DNA of 30,023 nucleotides from a virus (IMGVR_UViG_2690316318_000018:1-30023), one strand, 5' to 3'. Numbered from the stretch's first letter, positions 13,243-30,023 are shown. Made by a program: numbers and translations. The notes: generated by a model not told the origin, from the letters alone.

Positions 13243-14994
13243 ATGATTCAGGACGCTTTTGTGCGCCAGCGTGCGCGGCAACTTTACTGGCAGGGTTATC
13301 CGCCCGCAGAAATATCACGTCTGATGGGAATAAACCCGAACACGATTTATGCGTGGAAAAAACGCGACCAGTGGGATGAAACGCCACCCGTGCAGCGTGT
13401 CACGCAGTCCATCGATGCGCGCCTCATCCAGCTCACTGAAAAACAGAATAAAACAGGTGGTGACTTCAAGGAAATAGACCTGCTGACCCGGCAGCTTAAA
13501 AAACTGCATGATGGCCAGCCGGATGCGACGGCCACAGGAAAGAAAGGCCGGGCGAAAAAGCTTAAAAATCATTTCACGCCGGAACAGATTGCCGCACTGC
13601 GGGAAAAAATCATCAGCAGGCTGGAGTGGCATCAGCGGGGCTGGTTTGACTCCCTGACCCTTTGCAGGGAAGCAGGGATACGTAACAGGATGATCCTGAA
13701 ATCCCGACAGATTGGGGCGACCTGGTATTTTGCACAGGAAGCGCTGCTGATGGCGCTGCGTGACGATGTGGCGCAACCTTACCAGCGTAACCAGATTTTT
13801 TTGTCTGCGTCGCGTCGTCAGGCGTTCCAGTTTAAAAGCATTATTCAGAAGGCCGCGGCTGAAGTTGATGTGGAGCTGAAAGGGGGCGATAAAATCATCC
13901 TCTCCAACGGCGCAGAGCTGCATTTTCTCGGCACTTCTGCTGCGTCGGCACAGTCCTATACGGGCAATTTTTATTTTGATGAATTTTTCTGGGTCAGTCG
14001 CTTTGCAGAACTGCGCAAGGTGGCTGGCGCTATGGCAACCCTCAGCGGACTGCGGCGCACCTACTTCTCCACGCCATCCACCGAAACGCACGAGGCATAC
14101 GCCTACTGGAACGGCGACCGCTGGAACGAGAAAAAGGCCACGCATAAACGCCAGCGTTTTTCTGTGGACTGGAAAACGCTGCATAACGGGCTTATCTGCC
14201 CTGACCGGACGTGGCGGCAAATTGTCACGCTGGAAGATGTGGTTAATCATGGCTGGAAACACACCGATATCGACGAAATTCGTGATGAAAACACCGAAGA
14301 CGAGTTCCTCAATCTCTATATGTGTGAATTTGTCCGCGAAGGGGAATCGGCATTTAACCTGAATATCCTGATTGGCTGTGGTGTTGACGGATACGACGAC
14401 TGGAAAGACTGGAAACCTTTTGCTCCCCGCCCGATGGGGAATCGTCCGGTATGGATTGGGTATGACGCAAACGGCAGCAGTGGTAACGGCGACAGCGGCG
14501 CTGTGTCCGTGGTGGTTCCTCCGTCTGTTCCTGGTGGCCGTTTTCGAACGGTGGAGACGCGACGCGTTCAGGGGCTGGAGTTTGAAGAACAGGCCAGAGT
14601 CATTGAAGAGTTCACGTGTCGCTACAACGTGGAACACATCGGCATTGATGTGACGGGCGGGAACGGGGAGGCTGTTTATCAGATAGTGAAACGGTTTTTC
14701 CCTGCCGCTATTCCGTACACCTTCACGCTGTCATCAAAACGGTCGCTGGTACTGAAAATGCTGCAAATAATGCGTGCCGGGCGGTGGGAATACGATCGCG
14801 CCGAACGCGAGCTGGTCGCGGCCTTTAACGCCGTGCGTAAGGTGAAAACACCGGGCGGCTTTATCACTTACGAAACGGACCGAGCGAGGGGGATCAGCCA
14901 CGGCGACCTTGCGTGGGCAACCATGCTTGCTGTCATTAACGAACCGATTGGCGGCGAAGGAGAAAACGAGCGTTTCACGGTTATGGAGTTCTGA
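13243..14994 (+). CDS. P: Terminase ATPase (large) subunit P
   Basis: 583-aa ORF divergent from O and followed by the portal gene, as in P2. Confidence 0.85.
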   Translation: MIQDAFVRQRARQLYWQGYPPAEISRLMGINPNTIYAWKKRDQWDETPPVQRVTQSIDARLIQLTEKQNKTGGDFKEIDLLTRQLKKLHDGQPDATATGKKGRAKKLKNHFTPEQIAALREKIISRLEWHQRGWFDSLTLCREAGIRNRMILKSRQIGATWYFAQEALLMALRDDVAQPYQRNQIFLSASRRQAFQFKSIIQKAAAEVDVELKGGDKIILSNGAELHFLGTSAASAQSYTGNFYFDEFFWVSRFAELRKVAGAMATLSGLRRTYFSTPSTETHEAYAYWNGDRWNEKKATHKRQRFSVDWKTLHNGLICPDRTWRQIVTLEDVVNHGWKHTDIDEIRDENTEDEFLNLYMCEFVREGESAFNLNILIGCGVDGYDDWKDWKPFAPRPMGNRPVWIGYDANGSSGNGDSGAVSVVVPPSVPGGRFRTVETRRVQGLEFEEQARVIEEFTCRYNVEHIGIDVTGGNGEAVYQIVKRFFPAAIPYTFTLSSKRSLVLKMLQIMRAGRWEYDRAERELVAAFNAVRKVKTPGGFITYETDRARGISHGDLAWATMLAVINEPIGGEGENERFTVMEF

Positions 14995-16040
14995 TGAGCA
15001 GAAAAAATAAAAAAGTGCGCATGAGTTCACGCATTGATCTCGCTGATGCGCTCAGGAAAGAATCATCGCTCAGTGCATTCACATTTGATGGTCCTTATCG
15101 CCTGACCGGGCATGACCTGCTGGACAATATGTACTGTGCTGATAACGGGCGGTGGTATGAAACCCCAGTGGACTGGTACGGTCTGGCAAGAGCTGCCCGG
15201 CAAACGTCCTGGCATCAGTCTGCGCTTTACTTTAAGCGCAATGTATTGCTCGGTTGCTACATCCCGCACCCGCTGCTTTCCCGGCAGGATTTCTCGGCGC
15301 TGGCGCTGGACTGGTTTGTGTTCGGTAACGCATTCCTTGAGCTTCGAAGCAATATGCTCGGCGAACCGCTTAAATTACGGCACGCCCTGGCGAAATACAT
15401 GCGACGCGGAAGCGATCTTGAATCATGGTGGTATGTGCAGGATGGCAAGGATGCGTTTCAGTTTCGTCCTGGCAAAGTGTGTCACCTGATGAATCCTGAC
15501 ATTAACCAGGAAATCTACGGCATGCCGGAATATCTCGGCGCATTACTCTCGGCCAGCCTGTCTCATTCGGCGGACATGTTCAGAAAACTGTATTACGACA
15601 ACGGATCCCACGCCGGGTGCATCATCTACATCGGTGCAGCGCAGGTAAACCGCGAAAGCATGGACTCCCTGAAAGAAACGCTACAGGGTGCGCGTGGTGG
15701 TGGTGCGTTTAAAAACGTGCTCATTCATGCGCCCAACGGGGGCAAAGAGGGGGTGCAAATTTTGCCGTTCCAGCAGATCACCGCAAAGGATGAGTTCATG
15801 AATGTTAAGGCGGCATCCCGTGATGATGTGCTGGCTGCGCACCGCGTTCCGCCGCAACTGATGGGGGCGATGCCGGGTGAAAAAAGTGCGTTTGGTGATG
15901 TGGAGAAGGCCGCGCGGGTTTACGCAATTAACGAGCTGATGCCCGTCATGGAGGCCATGAAGCACATCAATGACTGGCTTGGCGAAGAGGTGATCCGCTT
16001 TAACCCTTACGCACTGTTAGACATCCAGCCCACATTCTGA
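14994..16040 (+). CDS. Q: Portal (capsid portal vertex) protein Q
   Basis: 348-aa ORF overlapping the P stop (ATGA); last late gene before the cos region, as in P2. Confidence 0.85.
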   Translation: MSRKNKKVRMSSRIDLADALRKESSLSAFTFDGPYRLTGHDLLDNMYCADNGRWYETPVDWYGLARAARQTSWHQSALYFKRNVLLGCYIPHPLLSRQDFSALALDWFVFGNAFLELRSNMLGEPLKLRHALAKYMRRGSDLESWWYVQDGKDAFQFRPGKVCHLMNPDINQEIYGMPEYLGALLSASLSHSADMFRKLYYDNGSHAGCIIYIGAAQVNRESMDSLKETLQGARGGGAFKNVLIHAPNGGKEGVQILPFQQITAKDEFMNVKAASRDDVLAAHRVPPQLMGAMPGEKSAFGDVEKAARVYAINELMPVMEAMKHINDWLGEEVIRFNPYALLDIQPTF

Positions 16041-16066
16041 CGCGCTTCGCTTGTCTGCTGCTTCGC

Positions 16067-16091
16067 CGGGGCATAAAAAATTTATGCCCCG
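16067..16091 (+). terminator. Perfect palindromic stem-loop 27 nt after the Q stop (possible terminator)
   Basis: cGGGGCATAAAaaaTTTATGCCCCg. GC-rich base and A/T-rich top; no clear U-tract follows. Confidence 0.4.
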
Positions 16092-16512
16092 ACTCTCCAG
16101 CTCCTGTATCAGTCAGATAATTTCACGACGCCTTCCAGTTTATCGCCACCATCGACGGTCAGACTCTTACGCAATCCCACCGCGTTGACTGCATGTTCTC
16201 GCCGCCTCAGTGCGATTTTGACGGCCTTACCTTTCACCCCATCAAATCAGAATCCCTCACGTATTTTTCACGCTCAGCGTGAGAAATACGGCCATTCTGT
16301 CGTGTCGCTGCGACATCGTTAAGGGAACGCTATTTACCCCCTGAAACGCGGGCTGTTCCCCCGTCACCTGCGCGCAGAAAAAGCGCGTTTTTTTGTGCAC
16401 GCACGGATCCCTGACGGATCCAGCCGCCACGCGGGCCAGAAGGGCAAAAATTCGTTCAAAAAAATTGTGCAAATTTGTGCACTATCGTGCATGTAAATTC
16501 ATAAAAAAATTA

Positions 16513-16538
16513 CAGAAAAAAGGCCGCTTTCGCGGCCA
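16513..16538 (-). terminator. Rho-independent terminator of the ATPase-protease operon
   Basis: On the minus strand, directly after the protease stop: GGCCGC-GAAA-GCGGCC followed by TTTTTTCTG. Confidence 0.65.
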
Positions 16539-16544
16539 TAAAAA

Positions 16545-18749
16545 TTACGTGTCGAGAGAAATTTGTGTGCGCAGTTGAATAGGATTCAGAATTGTATATC
16601 GCTGGCGAATAACATTATATAAATCAAAGTCTTTTACCCTTACGCTTATTACCATCGCATATTGCATATCAGGGGCTGAAACTCCCTTAACATGGCGCGA
16701 AGAATCTCGGGCATGATACCGTATATCAAAAACTGGATCGCTTAATAATGTATCAGCACTGAACTTTTTGCTTCTGTGCAAACAAGTTTCCCACTTATGA
16801 CCTTCACTCCTACACTCCCTTTCAGTCTTATACTGGCTTTTTTGACCAAAGAAATCATCTGTATCGGTATCGTCAAGGCCGAATCTTGGGCGGAAAGTTA
16901 CCTGCATACCGGCCCTTGTATAGTTTACTGAATGTTCAGGATCTACTGGGGTTTGAATGCATAAAGTAGCGGTAAGCTCAAATGCTTCGTCAAAGGGAAC
17001 ATCAGGGAATGGGATCGGTGCCCTTAAATATTTATTTTTTGCTAATGAACCATAGTAAATTACTGTAGCAGTATCATTTGGACAATCGATTAAAACGTTA
17101 GGATCCTCACTAAACCGTCCCCAACCGATATGTTCACGCGAATATTTTCTTGATGTTTCAGCATGATGAACAAGCAACGCTTTCAATGCAATGGTGTTCA
17201 ATGGAGTTCCTGATAGAGCCGCAACTCCAGCGGCCGTTCTCAATGCTAATGGAGAGGCATAACTGGTTCCTTGAACTCCAACTATAGAACCAAGCAGAGG
17301 GTTGTAAGTGTAAAAAGGCTCGTCGTCGCTTCCACCAAAAATAACACCATCAGGTTTAACGAATCCGGGGCTTCTGCCTGGCCCAATACAGCTATATGGT
17401 GCCCGCCCCCATTTTTCACCGCTACGATCAGCAGCACCAATCGCTAGCGCGTTTACCATATCGGAAGGAGGTTGTATTCTCGCTGCATCACCGTCCTCAT
17501 TGCCATCATTCCCAACAGCAACAGTAAGTAATATCCCATGCTTAGCACAGATTTGGTCTAAAACAGCAGTCCATACATGAACCTCATCATCACCAATTGG
17601 AAGATGAGGACCAATACTTAGATTAGCGAACTTATAGTCACCACTATCAAGAACGGACTGTATTTTCTTAAGGACATCAAATAAATCCCAATTGCCATTG
17701 TCACCTGATGTCGGTGAAAGAACTCTATAATGATCTACATTCATAAACGGTCTTTTAAAAGAAGGTGCATTTTCCTCGACACGTCCGAATAAGAAAGTGG
17801 ATGTCACTTCATTACCGTGCTGCAATAATAATCCGCTTGTTTCTTTGGTGTCTGGATACACGTATTCCGTAACCCAATTACTCAAGTCAGCTGTCCCCAA
17901 GCCACCATCAAAAATGGCAATACGTTCGGATTCAAGAACAGCTTTAGAATTAGGGAGCTCCGGTGTAACTATATTAGATAACTTTCTGACAATGTTCGGC
18001 TGAGTACACCTGAGAGACGGCATCGGCCGCACAACGCGGATTAATGAAAAATCGAGTGTTTTTTTCATATCTTCAGGTCGCGCGTGTGCAACGATGAAAG
18101 TCAGCCCACCAACTTGGATTCTACTTTTGTAATCAACAGAGACATCATATTGTGCCGCATAGCTAATATAGGCTTTAACGATATCATCGTCTTCAACCCC
18201 AGCATGAAGAACCACTTCAAATTTTATCAAATCACTTTTCGCATGCTCAAAATTGCGTGCTCTCTCTTTTCCTTCAAAAAAGCTAACACTTTCAATTTCG
18301 ATCAAATCCTTTTGTACGCCCTTCGGAGCTGTAGGGGAATTTAAAATTTCCTTAAATCTTATAACGGCATCATCATCACCGCTAACAAACAGTTGCGCCG
18401 TTACTAAGTCCTTATTCTGATCGCACTGACGTGCCGCTTTCCGTGGGCGAATGATTACCTGACGGCTGCCGACATCCCGTAAACCTGTCGCTCTAAGCAA
18501 TCCTTCCGGAAAGTAGCTTTTACCCAAAAACGCTGGGTGTAAAGTTAAATTGAATACACTCTCCCCCCTTGGCTTAGCCGCATCATCCAAACTGCGAAAG
18601 CGTGAGAGTAAAGTATCAATCTCTGGGTTTAAATGCTCCCTTACTTCTTCAAGAGTATAGGGATAGCGCTTACCATCCCTTCCTTTAGGCAAAGGTTCCT
18701 TTTTTGTCAGAACATGACCGTTACCTAAAAGTAAGTTCCTTTCCATCAT
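16545..18749 (-). CDS. Subtilisin-like serine protease (peptidase S8 family) with ~270-aa N-terminal and ~230-aa C-terminal domains of unknown function
   Basis: 734-aa ORF. S8 catalytic motifs in canonical D-H-N-S order: …RIAIFDGGLG… (Asp ~281), …LLQHGNEVTS… (His ~311), …VAVGNDGNE… (oxyanion Asn ~414), …GVQGTSYASP… (Ser ~496). Start overlaps the upstream ATPase stop (ATGA). AT-rich codon usage. Confidence 0.85.
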   Translation of the reverse strand: MMERNLLLGNGHVLTKKEPLPKGRDGKRYPYTLEEVREHLNPEIDTLLSRFRSLDDAAKPRGESVFNLTLHPAFLGKSYFPEGLLRATGLRDVGSRQVIIRPRKAARQCDQNKDLVTAQLFVSGDDDAVIRFKEILNSPTAPKGVQKDLIEIESVSFFEGKERARNFEHAKSDLIKFEVVLHAGVEDDDIVKAYISYAAQYDVSVDYKSRIQVGGLTFIVAHARPEDMKKTLDFSLIRVVRPMPSLRCTQPNIVRKLSNIVTPELPNSKAVLESERIAIFDGGLGTADLSNWVTEYVYPDTKETSGLLLQHGNEVTSTFLFGRVEENAPSFKRPFMNVDHYRVLSPTSGDNGNWDLFDVLKKIQSVLDSGDYKFANLSIGPHLPIGDDEVHVWTAVLDQICAKHGILLTVAVGNDGNEDGDAARIQPPSDMVNALAIGAADRSGEKWGRAPYSCIGPGRSPGFVKPDGVIFGGSDDEPFYTYNPLLGSIVGVQGTSYASPLALRTAAGVAALSGTPLNTIALKALLVHHAETSRKYSREHIGWGRFSEDPNVLIDCPNDTATVIYYGSLAKNKYLRAPIPFPDVPFDEAFELTATLCIQTPVDPEHSVNYTRAGMQVTFRPRFGLDDTDTDDFFGQKSQYKTERECRSEGHKWETCLHRSKKFSADTLLSDPVFDIRYHARDSSRHVKGVSAPDMQYAMVISVRVKDFDLYNVIRQRYTILNPIQLRTQISLDT

Positions 18750-19828
18750 TTAATCCCCCACTTTTGTAATTTATTCGCGATTGTTGGATGTGAAACACCA
18801 ACTAATTCAGCTATCTTCCTATTTGAAAAACCGTCAAAATGATATTTAATTATATTGAGATCATTATCGCTAAACTCATCCAATGAAACCCTCTCCGTAA
18901 TTACGGCTTCTATTAATGAGCTTTCAAATGGAATATTTCTAAGTACCTCATTCTTTTTGGAGAAATTCAAAATACGGTTAATGATGGCAAAGGACATGCC
19001 ATCTAATAATGGTGCAAGTTTTTTAGATAGTTCAGGTTCAATATTATGATTGACTAAATATCTATCTATCAGTTCTACTGATGGCATATTAAATTTAAGG
19101 ATGTGCTCAAATCGACGCCAAACAGCCGGATCTAAGATATCAGGGTGATTAGTCGCAGCAACAAGAAGCGAGGTCGCTGGCCACTCATCTATGGTCTGTA
19201 GGAGTACAGTAACTAAACGTTTTAATTCTCCAACGTCCCTGTCATCATCACGTCTTTTTGCAACAGCATCAAATTCATCAAGCAAAAGGACACATGGTTT
19301 CTCTTTGGCATAATCCATAACGGATTTAATATTATTACCTGTTTTTCCCAAAAGAGAACTCATTACAGATGAGAGATCCAATGTTAAAAGAGGTAAATTT
19401 AACTTTGCAGCAAGCCAATGTGCGGACATTGTTTTGCCTACGCCTGGCGGGCCAGAAAGTAAAACCGTCTTCACAGGTTCAAGACCAGCTTTGAACAAAG
19501 AAACCGCATTCTCTCTTTCGTTAACAATTGACTCCAGCTTCTTTGAGATATCCGTATTCCATACAGGTTCTTCAACAATTGCGTTGACAGATGTTTCCTG
19601 CAAAAGGTTTCGTCTGGAGTCTCCATCCACAGGCATAGGAGCCTTACTAGATGCCCCACGTAATACTGTTCCCTCAGCAACTAACGAAGCCAGCTTAGAA
19701 GCTAAAGCCTCATCATTTTTACGGATGTTGTTAATCATCTTTCTGCATAGGAGTGTAAATGCATTTGCGTTGCCTTTGATGCCTTGCTCGATGAGTTTGA
19801 AAAGTTCATCCTCCCTCACGTTTACCAT
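18746..19828 (-). CDS. Classic-clade AAA ATPase with predicted C-terminal helix-turn-helix
   Basis: 360-aa ORF. Walker A LSGPPGVGKT (~126-133), Walker B VLLLDEFD (~180-187), second region of homology …LLVAATNHPDILDPAVWRRFEH… (sensor-1 Asn, Arg fingers). C-terminal segment …SNRKIAELVGVSHPTIANKLQKWG… resembles a LuxR / sigma-70 region-4 type HTH. Confidence 0.85.
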   Translation of the reverse strand: MVNVREDELFKLIEQGIKGNANAFTLLCRKMINNIRKNDEALASKLASLVAEGTVLRGASSKAPMPVDGDSRRNLLQETSVNAIVEEPVWNTDISKKLESIVNERENAVSLFKAGLEPVKTVLLSGPPGVGKTMSAHWLAAKLNLPLLTLDLSSVMSSLLGKTGNNIKSVMDYAKEKPCVLLLDEFDAVAKRRDDDRDVGELKRLVTVLLQTIDEWPATSLLVAATNHPDILDPAVWRRFEHILKFNMPSVELIDRYLVNHNIEPELSKKLAPLLDGMSFAIINRILNFSKKNEVLRNIPFESSLIEAVITERVSLDEFSDNDLNIIKYHFDGFSNRKIAELVGVSHPTIANKLQKWGIK

Positions 19829-20132
19829 AAAACCCCCAATAAAACATCAGCTTGTGTAAGCTGGTAACTACATTAATGAAAATCATTGACTAATGTTACC
19901 ACTCTTGCTGGCGTAATTCAAAGAGTATCCTTACTTTTTTACTGTATGGATAATCAGCATAAAATCTATCCAGTTGGGTTACTCGAACATACTGTCAATA
20001 CTTGTTTCCAACGATTGATCAGTTCTACAGTTTTATCTCCTTCACTTGTGTTGGCAGCATGCTTATTCCTGAACCAGCTCGATTACTTGGCCATTTGAGA
20101 AAGATGTGTAGATCTTCTGATGGTTTGTATTG

Positions 20133-20164
20133 GAACGGGGTGTATAGTGATTTGCACCCCGTTC
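20133..20164. other. 10-bp perfect inverted repeat (hairpin or operator candidate) between parR and the ATPase operon
   Basis: GAACGGGGTG-N12-CACCCCGTTC, followed on the plus strand by TTTATGTT. Confidence 0.4.
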
Positions 20165-20206
20165 TTTATGTTATGGGATTGGTGGCAGGGCGAATACGCC
20201 CTGATG

Positions 20207-20518
20207 TTATTCAGGAAATAACGCCCGGATATTTCCGGCCATCTGACTGGTTATCTGTGCGGTTGATACTGGCTGTGACGCGGGGCGTTCTGTCTTGGTT
20301 TGTGTCACTGATAACACCTCATCATCAGCCCATGCAGCCAGTCGGTAAGCCTCTGCCGGATTCATTTTCAGAAGTGCCAGCCCGGCCAGAAAAGCCACGC
20401 GTTGGCCGCTTTTGCGGGCTTCTGGTGTAAGGCTGTCCAGCCAGGCGCATGCTTCTCCTTCGTTCTTGACGGCGGTGGGCTTCAGATAGAAACTTATCCG
20501 TCTGGTTGGAGTCGTCAT
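20207..20518 (-). CDS. parR: ParR-like centromere-binding partition protein
   Basis: The track ORF is N-terminally overextended; starting at the internal Met (MTTPTRRISFYLKP…) gives 103 aa. Pattern …ISFYLKP…LDSLTPEARKSGQRVAFLAGLAL…IRALFPE resembles plasmid R1 ParR as I recall it. Starts 5 nt after the parM stop. Confidence 0.7.
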   Translation of the reverse strand: MTTPTRRISFYLKPTAVKNEGEACAWLDSLTPEARKSGQRVAFLAGLALLKMNPAEAYRLAAWADDEVLSVTQTKTERPASQPVSTAQITSQMAGNIRALFPE

Positions 20519-20522
20519 TGGT

Positions 20523-21482
20523 TTACTCCTTGTCCATTGCGTACAGCCCATTAACCAGAGCAAACTGTGGCACCCCGTCCGCGATGAAAGTCGCATTAAC
20601 TCCGCAGGCTTCGCGGATAGCGGGTGCCACAATCTCCGCCCCTCCACCGACAACCATCACCCGCCCGTAACCCGAAAAAACCGCCAGCGCGCGGATCACG
20701 CGTTGTTTCAGTGTTTCCTCCTTTTCACGAATAACCGCCATCAGGCTGTCGTAATGCGCGTCATTGTGGATGTGCTGGCGCAGCCAGGCTTCATCATAGC
20801 GATGTTCGATAATGGTATTGGCGATGTGGTGACTGGTGCGCATACCGTTAGTGGCCATCACCGACAGCACGGCATCGGCCATCAGAGAAACGCCTACGTG
20901 TGGATCGCAAAACACCTGGCTGATACCTGCCAGTTGCCCCTGAACCTTTGCCACATCCAGCGTGGTTCCGCCCAAATCCACAATCAGCAGGGATTCAAAC
21001 GGACTCATGTCAGCCAGTGCTTTAAAGCCAGCCGGAATGGATTCAGGCATAACCCGCACGTTACGGATAGTGAATGCTTCGCCGTTCTGGTACTCCACCG
21101 GGCGCATAACGTTCGCTTTTTTGCGGTTGATGTTGGCCATGTCCGGCTGTGCGTTTGTGTCGAAATACTCGCTCAGTGGCAGGGTGACAACCACATCCAC
21201 CTCCTGTGGTGTGATGCCTGATTTGACCAGCGCGTGATGAATGGCAATGACATTCACATCGCTGTATTGGTATTGCGTGTCGGTCGTCTGGACAAAGCGA
21301 TCGCTGACCGGATCAAAACCATAGCGCACGCCATCAAGCATGTAGTTCGCGGGCTGCGTGCCACCGAACGGCGCAGACCATTCCGACTTGAAGCTGTTCG
21401 GGCTGATGGCGTTGCGGCGTTCGCCGTTCTCAGTCCATGCCAGCTTGATGTTGGTGGAGCCGTCGTCGATACAAATTTTCAT
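20523..21482 (-). CDS. parM: ParM/StbA-like actin-family partition ATPase
   Basis: 319-aa ORF. N-terminus MKICIDDGSTNIKLAW…ISPNSFK…YQYSDVNVIAIHHAL…VMPESIPAG…LIVDLGGTTLD… closely parallels plasmid R1 ParM (…FIDDGSTNIKLQW…ISPNSFK…WQYSDVNVVAVHHAL…VMPESIPAG…) as recalled from memory. Confidence 0.85.
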   Translation of the reverse strand: MKICIDDGSTNIKLAWTENGERRNAISPNSFKSEWSAPFGGTQPANYMLDGVRYGFDPVSDRFVQTTDTQYQYSDVNVIAIHHALVKSGITPQEVDVVVTLPLSEYFDTNAQPDMANINRKKANVMRPVEYQNGEAFTIRNVRVMPESIPAGFKALADMSPFESLLIVDLGGTTLDVAKVQGQLAGISQVFCDPHVGVSLMADAVLSVMATNGMRTSHHIANTIIEHRYDEAWLRQHIHNDAHYDSLMAVIREKEETLKQRVIRALAVFSGYGRVMVVGGGAEIVAPAIREACGVNATFIADGVPQFALVNGLYAMDKE

Positions 21483-21513: not shown

Positions 21514-21625
21514 TTTACGGGATTCTGAAATCCCGTTTTTGCCTGTTTTCTGCGCGCTTCATATATCGCTGCGCGTTTTTTGCTCATTTACGGGATTCGT
21601 GAGTCCCGTTTCTGTCTGTTTTTTG
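21514..21625. repeat. Two near-identical ~35-bp hairpin-plus-T-tract modules flanking the gene A stop, upstream of parM (parC-like or terminator candidates)
   Basis: TTTACGGGATTCTGAAATCCCGTTTTTGCCTGTTTT at 21514..21549 and TTTACGGGATTCGTGAGTCCCGTTTCTGTCTGTTTTTTG at 21588..21625. Each contains a 6-7 bp palindrome ACGGGA(T)…(A)TCCCGT. Confidence 0.5.
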
Positions 21626-24426
21626 TTTCCACTGGTCAGGCCACCCCGCAGCAGGTCTGCTTTGCGGCGGGCGCGTTCAGTGGTTTCACTGATTCTCTGT
21701 GCGTGCTCTGCGTCGCGGATGGCGCGCAGCATGTCAGAAAGCACGGTAACGGGTGTTTTCATGGTGTTCTGGTCCTGCTGAAGTGTGGATGCCAGGCGTG
21801 CGGCGGCTTCAGGGTCTGATGCCCCCAGCTGTGTCAGATAGCTGGCGACCGGGTTATGGCGGATCTCCGTGCTGCTTACGCCATGATTACGGCTCAGGCG
21901 CTGCCAGAGCTGCGTGATTCGGCTGTCCGGGCGGGTATCCGGTTTGCGTACAATTTCAAATCCCTGCGGTGCAATGATGCTGCCGTCAACGTACAGACTG
22001 CCGCCCCGTAACAGGTGCTGCATCTGTTGTTCACCGATATGCAGGCCGAGAGATTCAGCAGACTCCCGCCATTCTTTAGCGAGTAATTCGTGGTTATCAG
22101 GCAAAGGCCGCTGCTGTTTGCGGCTCTGTGTCCAGCTCTGCATTTCATCACTGCTGTTTTTTGCCTGTTTGTCACGAAGCGAACGCATCAGCGCCCGGCG
22201 TTCGTGCCGTTTCAGTGAGCGCATCCATTCATCCACATCAACGCCGTCAGGGAGCTGCGGCCACGGTGCTGGCCGTTCTTCCGGCTGTTCTGTCCCGTTG
22301 TTGTCCGTTTCCTGTACACGGGGACAGTTATTGCCACGAGTCCAAGGGGCGGCAGGGCCGCCCTGAAGGTCAAAACCATTTTCGCGGGCGCTGTCTTCCG
22401 CTTCCGGTTTACGTCTTACCAGCTTCCAGTTATCCGGATGTGTGCACACACGGGAAGACTCCCCGATGAGTGGTGACCAGATCCCGTAAATCTGTACGCT
22501 CTGTTCGCCGTAATCGTTCAGCTCATCTGCGAGGTCGTAGGCGGTGCGAATCAGGTAGTCTTTGCGTGGAACAAGTACGCCGCCCTGTTTTTCAATGTAG
22601 GAGGCAAAACACCCGGCATCAGCGGCAGCGAGCACTGCATCCATTGCGTCATCCTTCAGTCGTTGCGGGCCTTCCGGGTTGCGTGCCATCTGGCTGGCAA
22701 GGCGGCGCAGTTCACGCCACACCTGACGGGAGGGGATGCCAAAGAACTGGAACTGGCGGACCCGGTGAAGGCGCGCCCAGCCGATGGCGCGCTCCACGCT
22801 CTCGGCCATTGATTTTCCGGTTTCGTGGTCAACGCGTGGCTTGCCCGTTTTCGGGTCGATACCATCCACGGCGCGGCTGTCCAGGTTCTTTCCGATGTAG
22901 GTGGCGATGTAGCTGGTTGGCGTGCCTTTTGAGCCGTCGACATACTCCGCCTTAAAGCGCGGAGTAATATCATTGCCCAGCTCGTGGCGGTCTTCCTGAA
23001 TGGCAATATCGCGGGTGATGGCCACGATGCTGTCGATTTCTTCCGGATGAGCAAAGACCATCATATGCCAGTGCACAGTGCCGTCATGGTGAGGCTCCAC
23101 CGTGCGGATGCCATACCAGCGCAGGCCGTCGCGGTTCAGTTTCTTGCGGACCGCCGCAAAAAACGTGTTAACCAGGTAATCGCTGGAGTCGCGCATGGTG
23201 GCCCCGTTCCATTTGGGGTTCGGATGACCGTTCTCTGTTGTGGCGTGGTATTTTGACGGGCAGGTGACAGTCAGAAACACCGCTCTGTCGCCACGGGCTT
23301 CGGCCAGAAGTTCCAGTCCCTTCATGGTGGCCATCATTTCTGCCTTACGGTGAACCGGGTTACTTACTCCCGCGTAATACACTGTCTCGAGATCAATCGT
23401 GAACCCGTCTTCATTTTCCAGCATGAAACTTTTCAGGAAATCGCGTGTTTTCTCGCGCTGTGCGCGAAACTCGCTTAACGCGTCCTGGCTCAGATAGGGT
23501 GATGTTTTTCTGGAAACCAGACAGGCGGCGCGGAGTTGTTCTTCTCTCCACTCGCAACGTAACAGCCACAGTTTGCGTTTCCACCATTCCGCACAGGTCA
23601 GGCGAAGGATTGCGCCCGGCAGCAGCTCCGTGTCCGGTTCGTTCCTCCGGTCTTTGTCTGTTGTCAGTGCGTCATAATGTGGAGGCATGGCGTGCAGGTG
23701 TAACGCCATGCGGGCCAGCATCTGATACGCCTTCAGCGTTACATCCATGGTCAGTTCGCCATCAGTCGCGCCAAAGCCATCGCAGAGTTTTTCGAAGGTG
23801 CTGCTGAACATCGCCGCCGTCATGGTGGCCAGCGTCTGTATCTGGTGTTTGTTGAGCTGCGGCAGGTAAAGCAAATCGTCCAGGCGTTCGCGTCCGGCAA
23901 GGGAGCGATAACCCGGTGTCAGCCAGCGGTGGTCGGTGCGGTCCAGACGTTCGAATATTTTGCGCAGGGTTCCGCGCGCGTAGCGTTCCGCCTGCCAGCT
24001 CTTTTTGCCTTTCTGACGATCGGCTTCCTGCTTCTTGCGCAGGAAAGAGAGGTGGCGGCTCAGAGGTTCTCGCAGATAAACGGGAAGCGCCTTCAGTGTG
24101 GCAAAGGCACGGGCTACCGGGTCTTGTTCTGTTGCCCGGCGCTTACTGATGATGCTCTGTGCCAGCTTTTCACGCTGTCCGGCTTCCTCAAGGGATGCCA
24201 TGAGTTTTTTACCCATGGCGGATTGTGCGAAAAAGGCTTCTTCCTTCGCTTCCTGTTCTTTCTGTGCCCTTTTGTCCGCCTCAAGGTAGTAACGGATGGC
24301 GCGTTGCAGGTCGGTTTCAGTTTCCTGCCTGTGCTCCGTAAATCTGGCTGGATCAATGGCTGGCCGTGGTTCATTCCAGCTCCATGCAAACTCACTCATG
24401 GCTGGTATCCCGTCACGCGCTGCCAC
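21559..24426 (-). CDS. A: Replication initiation protein A (rolling-circle replication endonuclease)
   Basis: 955-aa ORF at the P2 gene A position, the largest early gene, after the small early ORFs and before the accessory interval. Longer than P2 gpA as I recall it. Confidence 0.75.
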   Translation of the reverse strand: MAARDGIPAMSEFAWSWNEPRPAIDPARFTEHRQETETDLQRAIRYYLEADKRAQKEQEAKEEAFFAQSAMGKKLMASLEEAGQREKLAQSIISKRRATEQDPVARAFATLKALPVYLREPLSRHLSFLRKKQEADRQKGKKSWQAERYARGTLRKIFERLDRTDHRWLTPGYRSLAGRERLDDLLYLPQLNKHQIQTLATMTAAMFSSTFEKLCDGFGATDGELTMDVTLKAYQMLARMALHLHAMPPHYDALTTDKDRRNEPDTELLPGAILRLTCAEWWKRKLWLLRCEWREEQLRAACLVSRKTSPYLSQDALSEFRAQREKTRDFLKSFMLENEDGFTIDLETVYYAGVSNPVHRKAEMMATMKGLELLAEARGDRAVFLTVTCPSKYHATTENGHPNPKWNGATMRDSSDYLVNTFFAAVRKKLNRDGLRWYGIRTVEPHHDGTVHWHMMVFAHPEEIDSIVAITRDIAIQEDRHELGNDITPRFKAEYVDGSKGTPTSYIATYIGKNLDSRAVDGIDPKTGKPRVDHETGKSMAESVERAIGWARLHRVRQFQFFGIPSRQVWRELRRLASQMARNPEGPQRLKDDAMDAVLAAADAGCFASYIEKQGGVLVPRKDYLIRTAYDLADELNDYGEQSVQIYGIWSPLIGESSRVCTHPDNWKLVRRKPEAEDSARENGFDLQGGPAAPWTRGNNCPRVQETDNNGTEQPEERPAPWPQLPDGVDVDEWMRSLKRHERRALMRSLRDKQAKNSSDEMQSWTQSRKQQRPLPDNHELLAKEWRESAESLGLHIGEQQMQHLLRGGSLYVDGSIIAPQGFEIVRKPDTRPDSRITQLWQRLSRNHGVSSTEIRHNPVASYLTQLGASDPEAAARLASTLQQDQNTMKTPVTVLSDMLRAIRDAEHAQRISETTERARRKADLLRGGLTSGNKKQTETGLTNPVNEQKTRSDI

Positions 24427-24785
24427 TCCTGCGAGAAGAGGGTGGAAAGGCGGTTAAATTCAGCGGTGTATTCACTCAGCGAGGCACACCCGCCAGCAGT
24501 GCGATGCGCCAGCATTGCCGCAAATACGGAGGCCGGGGAGTCGTAATACGCCAGTAGTGATTCGCCGTGTGGTGTCAGGCAGTGCAACGCCAGCCCGTGT
24601 GGTGTGAAGTCCACGCGGTAGCAGTCGTCTACTGTGAAATAAAGGGTGTCTGCATTCTCTGGTTTTGTGGTGCGTGCTCTGTTGTCACGACCACGGATGT
24701 AGAGATCAAATAATCCCTGAAGAACGGGAGCCAGACGGGTGTCCTGTGTGCGCACCCATCTTGTGAAGTCATGAGCGTCAATCAT
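24396..24785 (-). CDS. Hypothetical early protein (129 aa) overlapping the start of A
   Basis: ORF immediately upstream of A in the same orientation, in the interval of the small P2 early ORFs; no motif recognised. Confidence 0.5.
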   Translation of the reverse strand: MIDAHDFTRWVRTQDTRLAPVLQGLFDLYIRGRDNRARTTKPENADTLYFTVDDCYRVDFTPHGLALHCLTPHGESLLAYYDSPASVFAAMLAHRTAGGCASLSEYTAEFNRLSTLFSQEWQRVTGYQP

Positions 24786-24857
24786 GCTGCAATTCTCTTT
24801 ACTACAGATGTGCGAAGGCCTCCCGCCGCAAGGTGCAGGAAAGGCCCGGAACAGGAA

Positions 24858-25088
24858 TTAATGGAGTTTGTTTTGCTGCTGGATGAGCTGTTGAAGCTCG
24901 TGCAGATCATCCGCCAGATAGCTGAAAACAGAGGCGGAATAGATGTTCGATAGCGCGTGGCTGCGCTCATGCAGCATATTGATGTGCATGATTTGCGCGA
25001 CGCGTGATGCGCGGAAAAGTCTACGGTTGATTTCAGTCTGGATGTGACGACGCGCAGCGTATGCGCGCTGTTGTTTGCGGTTTGCCAT
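24858..25088 (-). CDS. Hypothetical basic small protein (76 aa)
   Basis: ATG at 25088 preceded by AAGAGG at appropriate spacing; basic N-terminus (MANRKQQRAYAARRH…). Confidence 0.5.
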   Translation of the reverse strand: MANRKQQRAYAARRHIQTEINRRLFRASRVAQIMHINMLHERSHALSNIYSASVFSYLADDLHELQQLIQQQNKLH

Positions 25089-25265
25089 GGTGTGGCCTCT
25101 TTGCTCGGTGATAGAAATAACTCACCATCCAGAGTTGAGAATCTCGGGGTGGCGAGACGTACAGGGTTCTCAACACCGGAGAGCAAAGAATCCGGCCCGA
25201 CCGAAGTCGGCCCCGTACGCCCCGCCATAATTCTGACGCGAAAAAGACGTGGCAATACAGTACGC

Positions 25266-25290
25266 ACAAAAAAACCGCTTGCGCGGTTAT
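25266..25290 (-). terminator. Rho-independent terminator (minus strand) downstream of the 99-aa gene
   Basis: Minus-strand reading AACCGC-GCAA-GCGGTT followed by TTTTTTTGTG. Confidence 0.45.
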
Positions 25291-25358
25291 GCGCTTTGCT
25301 CTGTATCGGGTTGAGAATCCCGGCACCCGTTTTATGAGGTGCAGCGGAAATGTAACCT

Positions 25359-25390
25359 GACCGATTGCGGCATGGCAAGCGGTTTTTTTG
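25359..25390 (+). terminator. Terminator-like hairpin plus T7 tract on the plus strand
   Basis: CCGATTGC-GGCATG-GCAAGCGG followed by TTTTTTTG; imperfect stem. Confidence 0.35.
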
Positions 25391-25410
25391 TGTGTGCATG
25401 TTCTGGTTTC

Positions 25411-25973: not shown

Positions 25974-26173
25974 TTGCGTGGCTCCTGTACCTGTCGGATA
26001 AGATTCACCCGCGCCACGTTGGTGGCGCAGAAGTAAGTGCCGTCAGTGAGGTAGATGTGGTGTGCATCCTTTTCCGAACGGTGTTTGTCGATTGTGGTAA
26101 TCAGGCGTTCGTCGACTTCGTATTCACGTCCTCTGGAGGTAAAACGAACGACAGGAAAATGCTTAATTGCCAT
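25970..26173 (-). CDS. Hypothetical early protein (67 aa)
   Basis: ATG at 26173 preceded by AAGGAGG at ideal spacing. Confidence 0.55.
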   Translation of the reverse strand: MAIKHFPVVRFTSRGREYEVDERLITTIDKHRSEKDAHHIYLTDGTYFCATNVARVNLIRQVQEPRK

Positions 26174-26259
26174 TACGCCTCCTTGGCGTGTGTGAATACC
26201 TCCGCGAATGCGGATTGTTTTTACATTTTCTTATTTAACCTGTGGTTTTATTTGCGCTG

Positions 26260-26373
26260 TTATTCGCCAGTGAAAAAGCGTTCAATCTTTTTCACTGAAT
26301 TAATAATTCGCATAATCCCAATGGCGCAGGCCACCGAAATAATCAGAACAAGCCATGAGATAAATATACTCAT
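26260..26373 (-). CDS. Unlisted 37-codon ORF encoding a single-TM hydrophobic peptide, translationally coupled to the upstream 81-aa gene
   Basis: Hand translation of the minus strand gives MSIFISWLVLIISVACAIGIMRIINSVKKIERFFTGE and a stop. Its ATG overlaps the TGA of the 81-aa ORF (ATGA). Below the 60-aa cutoff of the ORF track. Confidence 0.4.
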   Translation of the reverse strand: MSIFISWLVLIISVACAIGIMRIINSVKKIERFFTGE

Positions 26374-26615
26374 GCGATATTTCCCAGCTTATACGGTTCA
26401 ATATGTTCCCCGCATTCTGCGGCACAGATCAGCTCGGAAAGTTCGTTAAGTGCATCCAGATCATCAGCGTAAAAAGCCACGTCATACAGACTTCGGATTG
26501 CTCTGGTCAATGAGTCACGGGCCGCACGTTCAGCATGAGCGCCTGATGCACTTAAGCGAAAATAAAAACGCTCAAGTGCTTTGTTAATGAGAGTTTTATA
26601 TTCTTTGCCCATCAC
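26370..26615 (-). CDS. Hypothetical early protein (81 aa)
   Basis: ORF in the early operon; acidic and helical by composition. Confidence 0.5.
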   Translation of the reverse strand: MMGKEYKTLINKALERFYFRLSASGAHAERAARDSLTRAIRSLYDVAFYADDLDALNELSELICAAECGEHIEPYKLGNIA

Positions 26616-26623
26616 AACGCCCT

Positions 26624-27259: not shown

Positions 27260-27273
27260 AAAATGACACCTCG

Positions 27274-27552
27274 TTATTTTGTCATCTGCACGTATTTCTC
27301 TGCGTTTCTGATGGTTTTCAGGAAAATTGCGAAGAGATTTACTGTACGTTTTGAGTTTTTTTCTTCTTGGTTGATGGGAAGGGCTGCTCTGTCAGCCTGC
27401 CTTTTCACTGCATTAACAGTTTGATTGGTACGCTTCGCGTAATCTTTCAGGCTTTCTTCGAGTACCGGTAATCCATGCTCATCGCGGTATGGGTAGAACG
27501 CCGCCAAACGCTCAAAATCCGCTTGCTCGTATGTGTTCAAGAGCTTTGTCAT
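27274..27552 (-). CDS. cox: Cox/Apl-like excisionase-type regulator (HTH)
   Basis: 92-aa ORF divergent from the C repressor gene. Central segment …DYAKRTNQTVNAVKRQADRAALP… follows the P2 Cox HTH pattern (…AKLIGKSTGAVRRMIDKGKLP…) as I recall it. Confidence 0.6.
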   Translation of the reverse strand: MTKLLNTYEQADFERLAAFYPYRDEHGLPVLEESLKDYAKRTNQTVNAVKRQADRAALPINQEEKNSKRTVNLFAIFLKTIRNAEKYVQMTK

Positions 27553-27643: not shown

Positions 27644-27955
27644 ATGTCAAGTGGGTACGAAAAAAAACTGAAAGAGATACGGAAAAGTGAAGGGTTAACT
27701 CAAGCTGAGTTTGCAGATGTTACTGGGATAAATCTCGGAACTATAAAGAATTATGAGAGCGGTAAAAGAGAGGTTGGTTTAAGCGTTGTTGATCGCGTAA
27801 TTAATTCTAAGGATTTCGAAAAATACACTATATGGCTTATGACGGGAAAAACAAATGAGGCTGCTGGGCAGATCAGTCCCTCTCTCTCCCCTGATGGGCC
27901 AGAAAACACATCGTCTTCTCAAAAATCCCGCAAGACTGGTACACAGCCCGGCTAA
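27644..27955 (+). CDS. C: Immunity repressor C (P2 C-type HTH repressor)
   Basis: 103-aa ORF. …RKSEGLTQAEFADVTGINLGTIKNYESGKR…KYTIWLMTGKT…GQISPSL… parallels P2 C (…RKSEYLSRQQLADLTGVPYGTLSYYESGRS…KYTLWFMTNQ…GQIAPAL…) as recalled. Confidence 0.85.
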   Translation: MSSGYEKKLKEIRKSEGLTQAEFADVTGINLGTIKNYESGKREVGLSVVDRVINSKDFEKYTIWLMTGKTNEAAGQISPSLSPDGPENTSSSQKSRKTGTQPG

Positions 27956-28004
27956 TCATGGAACGCTGGGGGCATGGTGGTCTTGTAACGCTGGGGTTTC
28001 ACGA

Positions 28005-28982
28005 ATGAGCATAAAATCAATTCCGGGAGGGTATCTTCTTGACATGCGCCCGGAGGGGCGTAAAGGCAAACGCATTCGTAAAAAATTTAAAACGAAATCG
28101 GATGCAGTTTTATATGAGCGGTGGGTGCTGGCGCAACAGCATAACAATGAGTGGAAAGGAAACTCTATTGATCGCCGTCCTCTGTCAGTGCTTATTGACT
28201 TGTGGTGGAAATACCACGGCCAGCTAATGAAGTCAGGGCATAACACGCGCCTTAAATTGCTGCGCTTGAGTGAGGCAATGGATGACCCGTGCGTGCATAA
28301 ACTTAATACAACGATGCTCACCGAGCTACGTGTGTCCAGGATAGAGCAGGGGATACAGCCCAGCACCATAAATCGAGAGATTGGGGCGTTAAGCGCGATG
28401 TTTACCGCACTCATCTCATCCGGCCATTTTCTTAACGATAACCCCGTTCAAGGCCTTAAAGGAATGAAGGTTAACGAGCGCGAAATGGGATACCTGAGTA
28501 AGTCTGAATGTGTTCAGTTGCTGGATGCACTGGCTGAAAATCCCGATGAACGGCTGGCTGTCGAAATCCTTCTGTCGACCGGGGCGCGATGGGGCGAGGT
28601 AGCGGCACTGGAGCAGCGCCGTGTTCTTCATTGTCGAATCACTTTTTCAAAAACGAAGAACAGTAAAAACCGCACTGTCCCGATCTCCGAAAATCTGTTT
28701 GAAAAGATCAAAAAACGGGGCGGGAAACTAGTGTTTCCAACGCTGGATTATCCATTGGTTCGCGATGTCATCAAAACGGTCGCACCTGATGTTCCTGACG
28801 GCCAGGCTGTTCATGCGCTGCGCCACACCTTCGCCAGTCATTTCATGATGAACGGCGGTAATATTCTGACGCTCCAGAAAATTCTGGGGCACGCAAAGAT
28901 TCAGACAACGATGATTTATGCCCATCTTGCGCCGGATTACCTGCAGGATGCGGTGAGGTTTAATCCCTTGGGAGGAATGTAA
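28005..28982 (+). CDS. int: Tyrosine integrase (P2 Int family)
   Basis: The track ORF is overextended; ATG at 28005 gives 325 aa. C-terminal catalytic motifs …HALRHTFASHF… and …LGHAKIQTTMIYAHL… (R…HxxR…Y). Confidence 0.9.
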   Translation: MSIKSIPGGYLLDMRPEGRKGKRIRKKFKTKSDAVLYERWVLAQQHNNEWKGNSIDRRPLSVLIDLWWKYHGQLMKSGHNTRLKLLRLSEAMDDPCVHKLNTTMLTELRVSRIEQGIQPSTINREIGALSAMFTALISSGHFLNDNPVQGLKGMKVNEREMGYLSKSECVQLLDALAENPDERLAVEILLSTGARWGEVAALEQRRVLHCRITFSKTKNSKNRTVPISENLFEKIKKRGGKLVFPTLDYPLVRDVIKTVAPDVPDGQAVHALRHTFASHFMMNGGNILTLQKILGHAKIQTTMIYAHLAPDYLQDAVRFNPLGGM

Positions 28983-28984
28983 CT

Positions 28985-29485
28985 ATGGAAATAAAAAAAC
29001 CTACAAAAAAAGAGTTATATGACTATTTACTATCGAAATATATAGAAGATAAATGCAAAGAAGAAGCTGATGAAATCAATAAGAAGTCGATGAGTCGTGT
29101 CAATAAACATAAGGAGCGGCTGATGGAGATTACGCCAGAAATCTTCTTCCGTTTCTTGTCTGAGAAGGAGGTTTCCAGTGTCTGCCCTTCATGTGGATCG
29201 TCTCGATTATCTGTGCCTGAAAGTATGGATCTTTGCTGGGATAAAAATAAGAAACCAGAAAATTTTAACAATCTACCCTTGGAGGAGCAGAGTGAGTTAA
29301 TTAAAGAGAACATAAAGCATTATGTATCTTATACTTTTTTGGGTGATGTTAAGAGCATACCTGATATGCGCAAAACTTATTACACGCTGCATTGCCTGAA
29401 TTGTGGTTACCTGAGCCTTTACCGTACGTCTGCGGTGCTGAAGTGGTTGGAGAAAGACAAAGCACAGGATGGTGAAAATGGGTAA
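28985..29485 (+). CDS. Hypothetical Lys-rich protein with two Cys pairs (possible zinc ribbon), AT-rich cargo
   Basis: 166-aa ORF starting 3 nt after the int stop; CPSCGS … CLNCGY; strongly AT-rich codon usage unlike the phage backbone. Confidence 0.55.
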   Translation: MEIKKPTKKELYDYLLSKYIEDKCKEEADEINKKSMSRVNKHKERLMEITPEIFFRFLSEKEVSSVCPSCGSSRLSVPESMDLCWDKNKKPENFNNLPLEEQSELIKENIKHYVSYTFLGDVKSIPDMRKTYYTLHCLNCGYLSLYRTSAVLKWLEKDKAQDGENG

Positions 29486-30023
29486 TGTAGCAAGAAACCT
29501 GTTCGGTAATTCAGCAGGTAGTATGTCGCATTCTGAGCGTGATGTGCTTTATCATGGCGGCGATGGCGGCAGTAGTGGAGGTGGAATGTCAGATAAACTT
29601 GAAAGGCGAATTGAGCGACTCGAAAGTGATTTATCGCTAACAAGAAACGACCTTGCGACGCTTGCTGAACGCACTACAAACCTCTCAACCAAAGCCGATG
29701 TTGGTGAGGTGAAGGGTGAGCTCAAAGCAGACATTGCTCATCTGAAAGGTGAGCTTGAATGCGATATTGCGAATCTGAAAGGTGAGCTTAAATCTGATAC
29801 AGCTAATCTGAAAGAGCAGCTCAAATCAGACATTAACAGCCTGAAGGGTGAGCTTACCGAAGCGATGGATAAACGCTTTGACAAGATTATGGATGAGATG
29901 AATCGGCGGTTTGACAAGGTTGATGATAATACGAAGTGGCGTTGGAGTGGCATTATTGTGCCAGTGTGCACAACCATTTTCACGGCGGCGGTCGCGTATT
30001 TTGTTGCTAAATTTGTTGGCTGA
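29469..30023 (+). CDS. Hypothetical tail-anchored coiled-coil membrane protein with five tandem 11-residue repeats
   Basis: 184-aa ORF overlapping the upstream ORF by 17 nt. Gly/Ser-rich linker, then repeats …VGEVKGELKAD / IAHLKGELECD / IANLKGELKSD / TANLKEQLKSD / INSLKGELTEA…, then a single C-terminal TM helix (WSGIIVPVCTTIFTAAVAYFVAKFV). Ends at the window edge. Confidence 0.55.
   Translation: MVKMGNVARNLFGNSAGSMSHSERDVLYHGGDGGSSGGGMSDKLERRIERLESDLSLTRNDLATLAERTTNLSTKADVGEVKGELKADIAHLKGELECDIANLKGELKSDTANLKEQLKSDINSLKGELTEAMDKRFDKIMDEMNRRFDKVDDNTKWRWSGIIVPVCTTIFTAAVAYFVAKFVG

Follow-up and report, generated by a model that had tools for sequence, protein, structure and literature searches.

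The viral DNA examined here (IMGVR_UViG_2690316318_000018:1-30023, a stretch of 30,023 nucleotides that we refer to in its whole length as the window) carries two neighbouring minus-strand genes for an AAA+ ATPase, IetA, and a subtilisin-like S8 protease, IetS. In our assessment this block very probably belongs to the ietAS family as a module of two genes, and is accessory cargo that a P88-like (Xuanwuvirus) P2-family prophage of Escherichia coli carries in its cos-proximal gpA-gpQ hotspot. ietAS is a defence system of Gao et al. 2020 and goes back to the IetA/IetS toxin-antitoxin pair reported for the Agrobacterium plasmid pTiC58 (Yamamoto et al. 2009). The pair at the gpA-gpQ slot is real and was correctly interpreted in the preliminary description of the window, which had proposed a candidate anti-phage system. 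Moreover, it is already known, because the same proteins were published in 2022 at the same locus and with the same label.

Both open reading frames lie at the positions given in the preliminary description, and the stop codon of ietA and the start codon of ietS share the ATGA at 18746-18749, which can be read directly (...AAATGATGG...). The two genes are translationally coupled, and they are followed by a clean intrinsic terminator, a GC-rich hairpin with a T-run that starts 8 nt past the ietS stop (Table 1). The block is also AT-rich as described, with a GC content of 41.1% versus 53.7% and 56.3% in the 4-kb flanks on either side. The range originally assigned to it, 16513-19860, does contain the block, but the mobile unit is wider. 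The backbone of the window shares 97-98% identity with two relatives, Escherichia phage P88 (Xuanwuvirus, Peduoviridae) and pZ1323PEC0009-2 (NZ_CP148288.1), a circular plasmid of 34.5 kb. Since the homology with both relatives stops at 16498/16499 and resumes at 20156/20157, we define the mobile unit as the 3658 bp between these breakpoints, where P88 has 869 bp of other genes and pZ1323PEC0009-2 has 311 bp. The flanks are matched in 1434 E. coli genomes, just 32 of which have the cassette. Among 5426 complete E. coli genomes, 32 carry it, in each case on the chromosome.

Rousset et al. 2022 report that in P2-like phages of E. coli the cos-proximal gpA-gpQ locus is a defence hotspot. The preliminary description had placed the pair in the P2 A-to-Q hotspot, and the slot as such is borne out by the gpA-like protein, the P2-type portal and terminase and the variable cargo at fixed breakpoints. 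The backbone, however, is that of a P88-like Xuanwuvirus with ParM/StbB between gpA and the cassette, and not that of P2 itself. In P2, old and tin occupy the same genomic slot (gene A to cos/Q) and have the same presumed role as the ietAS cassette, namely the exclusion of other phages by the prophage, although the Old and Tin proteins are unrelated to IetA and IetS. Old is an ATPase-TOPRIM nuclease, while Tin targets the single-stranded DNA-binding protein of T-even phages.

Table 1. Positions of the ietAS cassette, its parts and the surrounding genes in the window (ORF, open reading frame; HTH, helix-turn-helix; AF2, AlphaFold2).
Feature	Position	Strand	Basis and remarks
ietAS cargo cassette	16499..20156	.	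3658 bp, 41.1% GC; replacement segment in the gpA-gpQ hotspot
Intrinsic terminator past ietS	16522..16537	-	GGCCGCGAAAGCGGCC then TTTTTT
ietS	16545..18749	-	734 aa, cytoplasmic S8 (subtilisin-like) protease; ORF, Pfam, PADLOC
IetS C-terminal beta-rich domain	16560..17087	-	residues ~555-730; AF2 model, conservation
IetS S8 catalytic domain	17115..17936	-	residues ~272-545; Pfam, AF2, structural matches
IetS propeptide-like (I9-like) module	18015..18227	-	residues ~175-245, beta-alpha-beta-beta-alpha-beta, directly before the catalytic domain
ietA	18746..19828	-	360 aa, classic-clade AAA+ ATPase with C-terminal HTH; ORF, Pfam, PADLOC
IetA C-terminal HTH	18749..18856	-	residues ~325-360, ...SNRKIAELVGVSHPTIANKLQ...
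Operator-like inverted repeat TGGTAA-N28-TTACCA	19862..19901	-	read from the sequence; enrichment in orthologous upstream regions
Candidate sigma-70 promoter TTGAAT-17-TAACAT, TG at -15/-14	19893..19921	-	8/12 match; conservation only
Frameshifted gpA 3' remnant, Novemvirus-type	19969..20087	-	last ~42 codons; tblastn of phiT5282H gpA
Terminase (flank)	13243..14994		P2-type; ORF and P88 annotation
Portal protein, gpQ-like (left hotspot border)	14994..16040	+	ORF; portal in P88 and E. coli RefSeq records
StbB/ParR-like partition protein (flank)	probably 20207..20518	-	Pfam Plasmid_stab_B 1.7e-23
ParM/StbA (flank)	20523..21482	-	Pfam StbA_N 1.6e-82, ParM C-terminal 6e-68
Replication endonuclease, gpA-like (right hotspot border)	21559..24426	-	955 aa; Pfam Phage_GPA E 7.9e-131
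205-aa protein	24782-25399	-	matches phage transcriptional-regulator PHROGs
130-aa ORF	26057-26449	+	no Pfam or PHROG match
DUF4761 protein	within 26000-30023
Cox-like gene	27274..27552
HTH_3 repressor	27644..27955
Integrase	27855..28982		mechanical ORF start overlaps the repressor gene
Two ORFs past the integrase	28985..29485; 29469..30023		second is coiled-coil and runs to the last base of the window

Family membership was assessed with Pfam and with the profiles PDLC02196 and PDLC02197 of PADLOC and NF042959 (IteA) and NF042956 (IteS) of NCBIfam. IetA has the features of a classic AAA ATPase that had been noted earlier, with a Walker A motif GPPGVGKT that includes K132 and a Walker B motif with D184/E185 (Pfam AAA, E 9.6e-31), and it matches PDLC02196 with an E-value of 3.6e-89 (residues 7-356 on profile positions 5-370 of 374). 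K132, D184/E185, the sensor-1 residue N227 and R238/R239 are 100% conserved in 75 IetA orthologues. All four residues of the D-H-N-S catalytic set previously reported for the S8 protease are present in IetS as D281 (FDGG), H311 (HGN), N414 (GNDG) and S496 (GTSYA), and they are invariant in 59 orthologues with an identity down to 41%. IetS is matched by Peptidase_S8 of Pfam (E 4e-17) and by PDLC02197 (E 6.6e-41, residues 22-707 on profile positions 24-718 of 749), and the best NCBIfam matches of the two proteins are the equivalog models 'anti-phage ATPase IteA' and 'S8 family anti-phage peptidase IteS'. The likeness to the composition of ietAS, to which the preliminary description had pointed, is supported by these full-length PADLOC matches and by the ietAS label that Rousset et al. 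gave to identical proteins; the Pfam and PADLOC runs which had been proposed as a check place both proteins in ietAS and not in a morphogenesis or housekeeping family.

Row 7 of Table S5B in Rousset et al. 2022 combines Peptidase_S8 with AAA, gives 400 occurrences and the label 'ietAS (Gao et al, 2020)', and refers to the gpA-gpQ hotspot of E. coli P2-like phages. The proteins of this entry (WP_000248600 and WP_000970615) are identical to those of the window in 360/360 residues of IetA and in 399/399 printed residues of IetS, and their system no. 7 is the same entity as the window pair, with no difference at the sequence level. Furthermore, the coding DNA of the cassette is 100% identical to that of enteropathogenic E. 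coli (EPEC) E2348/69. PADLOC or DefenseFinder would flag the pair automatically, and as a discovery it adds little. Its value lies rather in being a clean and well-bounded example, with identical breakpoints, a remnant of the gpA of the donor phage and complete identity to the well-studied EPEC strain, and in offering testable handles on the mechanism of ietAS, namely a predicted operator for the HTH of IetA with clade-specific variants and a propeptide-like module in IetS.

Several points weigh against a direct transfer of function to this pair. The scores of 253.1 bits for NF042959 (cut-off 510) and 115.7 bits for NF042956 (cut-off 900) are far under the equivalog cut-offs, so the pair belongs to a branch of ietAS that diverges from the NCBI reference pair and is named only 'AAA family ATPase' and 'S8 family peptidase' in RefSeq; because of this divergence, function is transferred by family and not by orthology to the reference pair. 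With reference ietAS it shares a mobile-element-borne location and the position of the AAA+ ATPase gene, immediately upstream of and coupled to the S8 peptidase gene. Rousset et al. 2022 catalogued the pair without cloning or testing it. No direct phage test of this variant was found in the literature consulted. The ietAS of E. coli ECOR52 gave limited protection alone, and it synergised with Zorya II against T3 (Wu et al., who also noted E. coli ietAS as prophage-borne). An identity of the window pair with this ECOR52 system was considered and rejected: with up to 3 mismatches allowed, the window contains no match to the ECOR52 cloning primers, and ECOR52 ietAS must therefore be a different sequence. 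From family membership and hotspot location we nevertheless infer that this exact variant is likely to have anti-phage activity, by analogy to other members.

A second type of ietAS in E. coli has been studied as ietHAS (Nucleic Acids Research 2026, PMC13069673). The E24377A-type pair has the same AAA-then-S8 order and the same PADLOC call as the window pair, whereas its IetA is only 31% and its IetS 22% identical to the proteins of the window, the latter in the S8 core only. Its IetA has 326 aa and lacks the C-terminal HTH, its IetS has 795 aa, and the system requires an additional SNF2 helicase and is chromosomal rather than located in a prophage hotspot. The ECOR52 primers do not match the E24377A locus either. 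By sequence comparison, E. coli has at least two very different branches that go by the name of ietAS, and the E. coli tests found in the literature concern branches other than that of the window. In strain E24377A (NC_009801.1 3330029-3340792), ietAS is located between the SNF2 helicase gene and the methyltransferase and helicase genes of a type III restriction-modification system; this locus corresponds to 'ietHAS', and its neighbourhood explains the published co-localisation of ietAS with type III restriction-modification systems.

The cassette is a discrete replacement segment that is also present, with about 96% identity, in a different P2-like genus. In Enterobacter phage phiT5282H (Novemvirus; MG589387, HYP56_gp20/gp21), its DNA recurs with 95.8-96.6% identity along ~3.7 kb, which take in the promoter region as well as the terminator and reach ~260 bp upstream of ietA, while the terminase and portal genes of this phage are only ~72% identical to those of the window. 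In both elements ietAS adjoins the portal gene and lies between portal and gpA, but in phiT5282H it directly follows gpA without partition genes, which are present at this place in the window. Between the partition genes and ietA, the window retains a gpA remnant that a 7-bp deletion splits into two frames, with 19/23 and 16/19 matching residues, and this remnant differs from the gpA of the element itself. Because a gpA tail of the phiT5282H type came along, we conclude that the cassette was imported from a P2-like phage with ietAS directly after gene A.

Outside of P2-like phages, distant orthologues (43-53% identity) adjoin integrases, a TraI_2 relaxase or a primase in islands of Enterobacter and Pseudomonas. 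In a species-level genome collection, 482 matched stretches encode a relative, of which 80 loci were kept that come from Proteobacteria, Planctomycetota, Myxococcota and other phyla according to record titles; together with three loci from the Enterobacter and Pseudomonas island searches they make up 83 orthologous loci. A homologue of IetA is located immediately upstream of ietS on the same strand in 81 of these 83 loci, with a gap of -35 to +14 nt, and the two exceptions are contig ends. This conserved A-then-S order and the presence of orthologues in unrelated integrase and relaxase islands identify ietAS as an autonomous module.

Besides its ATPase domain, IetA carries a C-terminal HTH, which is detected in the isolated fragment by Pfam HTH_50 (E 3.9e-07, exceeding the cut-off) and by TIGR04381 (4e-06) and which is retained in orthologues with 45-51% IetA identity. 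Upstream of ietA, the inverted repeat TGGTAA-N28-TTACCA (arms at 19901-19896 and 19867-19862) overlaps the candidate -10 box. Of 75 non-redundant orthologous regions upstream of ietA, 33 contain TGGTAA/TTACCA, versus a mean of 6.1 and a maximum of 14 in 200 shuffles, and 37 contain a perfect TGGNNN(8-70)NNNCCA inverted repeat (mean 1.2, maximum 5 in 300 shuffles). At -150..-1, the TGGNNN..NNNCCA repeat occurs in 36/74 regions compared to 2-5 of ~70 in each of five control regions of the same loci. Relative to the start codon, the repeat is centred on -54 in the median (interquartile range -64 to -51), and the -53.5 of the window comes close to this value. The position of the repeat is kept across phyla and its sequence is clade-specific: GGAC(T/G)A repeats pair with the IetA recognition helix S-R-D-T-(I/L)-R-K (18/18), TGGAAC repeats with S-H-(T/M)-T, and TGGTA repeats, the type of the window, with S-(H/R)-P-T.

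Such a pairing is the pattern expected of an operator that co-evolves with its binding protein, and the repeat represents a predicted operator that would fit the antitoxin role of IetA. Because the C-terminal HTH is accompanied by a promoter repeat with a conserved position and with a sequence that varies together with the recognition helix, IetA probably autoregulates the ietAS operon. Two points speak against this interpretation of the repeat. The operator type and the HTH sequence both follow phylogeny, and their covariation is therefore not independent proof; moreover, TGGTAA could partly be an extended -10 element. The hexamers of the candidate promoter are kept in phiT5282H while the spacer differs, and a consensus promoter scan gave no minus-strand promoter upstream of ietA at the threshold of the scanner, below which TTGAAT-17-TAACAT falls. 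An 11-nt imperfect inverted repeat at 19870-19896 was rejected as operator, as the phiT5282H copy retains only ~5/11 positions. A small hairpin, CAGCTTacacAAGCTG (19848-19863), which partly overlaps the TTACCA arm, has a single compensatory change relative to phiT5282H, too little to call it. In the literature consulted on ietAS, we found no description of a predicted operator or a specificity code of the IetA HTH.

By sequence search, the nearest solved structures for IetA are classic-clade AAA+ ATPases of the p97/Cdc48 type, and no solved structure of IetA or IetS itself was detected. The pore-loop-1 position of IetA reads S-S-(L/F)-L-G and lacks the aromatic residue of p97 D2, which calls for caution before naming IetA a processive unfoldase. 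For IetS, the same search gave marginal subtilase matches only (E >= 2e-4), and no family was matched by Pfam at E <= 5 in the isolated regions 1-275 and 528-734. The N-terminus of IetS, as read from the sequence, has no hydrophobic signal peptide. An AlphaFold2 model (predicted local distance difference test, pLDDT, 85.7; predicted template modelling score 0.88) divides the protein into an N-terminal region (33-250), which includes an additional alpha/beta domain, the S8 domain (272-545) and, at the C-terminus, a beta-rich domain (555-730).

When residues 1-270 were modelled apart (pLDDT 84.5), the top structural matches were ProN-Tk-SP (8.3), the PCSK9 prodomain (7.8) and POIA1 (7.4), with further matches to the BPN' prodomain (6.9), the Tk-subtilisin propeptide (6.6) and the CspB prodomain (6.5). 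This model is matched about equally well by S6, ACT and other generic ferredoxin-like folds, and it is the beta-alpha-beta-beta-alpha-beta order together with the place directly before the catalytic domain that makes a retained propeptide-like module the best reading of residues ~175-245. The model suggests that IetS carries a subtilase-propeptide-like module ahead of its catalytic domain and could be under zymogen-type control. The same succession of a propeptide-like module and an S8 domain is found in zymogen subtilases that retain their propeptide, namely pro-subtilisin E, Tk-SP, PCSK9 and Clostridium CspB, which are also the best structural matches of IetS. However, these are secreted or spore proteins that are activated by autoprocessing, whereas IetS is cytoplasmic and differs from them in its extra N-terminal alpha/beta domain, its distinct C-terminal domain and its genetic tie to an AAA+ ATPase. 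T595, D603, H606, N609, Y610, T611, E643, R647, W653 and E654 in the C-terminal domain are invariant, and the polar cluster at residues 595-680 (~16710-16965) resembles a binding site or a second catalytic site more than a passive beta-sandwich.

In other ietAS members, IetS acts as the toxin and IetA as the antitoxin, as is reported for the pair of pTiC58 and in keeping with ietHAS. In ietHAS, a mutated ietA could not be cloned and protease activity is required for defence (PMC13069673), and in Bacillus cereus ietAS leads to abortive infection that is triggered by expression of SPbeta yosG. The April 2026 paper on ietHAS states that the way in which ietAS acts against phages is still unknown, and our literature search retrieved no substrate of IetS and no structural mechanism of ietAS. 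The suggestion in the preliminary description of an ATPase-controlled protease in an abortive-infection module agrees, by analogy, with these published roles in other members of the family.

In the mechanism that we propose, an IetA hexamer with ATP would keep IetS inactive in the uninfected lysogen, most likely by acting on or stabilising a zymogen-like, propeptide-bearing IetS, and the HTH of IetA would bind the TGGTAA...TTACCA repeat over its own promoter and limit the expression of the pair. An incoming phage protein, or the loss or poisoning of IetA, could then lift the restraint, and freed IetS would cleave cellular or phage proteins, which would stop growth and abort the infection. As an outcome, clonal lysogens would be protected and competing phages excluded, and by the same toxin/antitoxin logic, losing the element would carry a penalty as well. 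A more specific and still tentative version, to which we give rather less than even chances, applies to the HTH-bearing branch of IetA, in which the protein might sit on a co-evolving operator over its own promoter and at the same time restrain a zymogen-like cytoplasmic subtilase. If this were true, derepression of the operon and release of the protease would both follow from a single change in IetA that a phage triggers, and IetA would be repressor, antitoxin and sensor in one, a mode that is not described for ietAS. The variant of the P2 hotspot may have a phage specificity of its own, directed for instance at P2-like or lambdoid competitors, or its main role may be that of an addiction module in a P88-like element able to exist as a plasmid.

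The latter would mean that the cassette mainly stabilises the P88-like element by post-segregational killing, with IetS killing cells upon loss of IetA and with an anti-phage activity that is secondary or absent. It draws on the first description of ietAS, which is reported to have been as a plasmid-stabilising toxin/antitoxin pair on pTiC58, and an HTH-autoregulated antitoxin would be typical of addiction modules. Moreover, the cassette directly adjoins a ParM/StbB partition module, the circular plasmid pZ1323PEC0009-2 (34.5 kb) has a backbone nearly identical to that of the window, and about a quarter of P2-like phages have partition genes in the hotspot that may allow plasmid maintenance (Rousset et al. 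2022); the limited phage protection by ECOR52 ietAS (Wu et al.) would also fit. However, both the plasmid-form relative and P88, which has the ParM/StbB cargo as well, are without ietAS and phiT5282H has ietAS without partition genes, so the linkage between ietAS and par is not obligatory. All 32 of 32 occurrences in E. coli are chromosomal, the slot is a documented defence hotspot, and other ietAS members do give phage protection. We therefore regard addiction as the main function as improbable, although the two roles can coexist, and prefer the reading as ietAS defence cargo.

A role of the pair in phage morphogenesis or housekeeping was named in the preliminary description as the result that would speak against a defence module; the pair could then be a protease of prohead formation or maturation together with its ATPase, or serve FtsH-like quality control. 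AAA+ ATPase-protease pairs are indeed common in proteolysis machines, and the GenBank record of phiT5282H names the ietA homologue 'ftsH: ATP-dependent zinc metalloprotease'. IetA, however, has no metalloprotease domain, and FtsH models match its AAA core only and far under their cut-offs. P88 and pZ1323PEC0009-2 are complete phages without the pair, the P2-type capsid scaffold/protease gene is located elsewhere in the late operon, orthologues are present in non-phage islands, the block is compositionally foreign, and Pfam gave no prohead-protease match in the cassette proteins, all of which makes a morphogenesis or housekeeping role extremely improbable. Equally negligible is the idea that the EPEC host exports IetS as a virulence or toxin protease, in the manner of SubA or autotransporter subtilases, and that IetA serves it as a chaperone: the identical cassette in E2348/69 and the SubA subtilase toxin subunit at rank 30 of the structural matches of IetS are offset by the lack of a signal peptide (sequence) or autotransporter domain (Pfam), by the range of hosts, with commensal, animal and environmental strains among them along with many non-pathogenic phyla, and by dozens of generic S8 matches with a Z similar to that of SubA.

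On the right side of the ietAS cassette, the mechanical open reading frame of the StbB/ParR-like protein (20207-20653, minus strand) has 148 aa with a TTG start and a 131-nt overlap with parM. Its real start is probably near 20518, because the PHROG partition profile covers residues 46-148 only and P88 annotates 103 aa. Further matches of the partition gene are found in plasmid records of Shigella and Salmonella; these matches and the circular plasmid record are consistent with P88-like P2-like phages being kept as phage-plasmids by parMR. Right after the stop codon of the partition gene, two strong hairpins are found at 20132-20203: a 10-bp perfect stem GAACGGGGTG/CACCCCGTTC, which straddles the right breakpoint 20156/20157, and CAGGGCGAATACGCCCTG, just outside of the cassette. 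These hairpins might terminate the par operon or mark a site of recombination.

On the left side, a non-coding stretch of 458 bp (16041-16498) with several GC-rich hairpins and A/T runs extends from the portal gene to the cassette. It is kept in P88 and, from 16347, also in phiT5282H, and is presumably the cos region; the 19-mers of P2 and 186 cos have no match within 5 substitutions in 16000-16600. The end of the element (26000-30023) is low in GC (43-49%) and contains, among others, the Cox-like, repressor and integrase genes, and the two open reading frames past the integrase could be further cargo or host DNA. Finally, the early region with the 205-aa protein and the 130-aa open reading frame, where P88 has different genes, is possibly a second variable spot.

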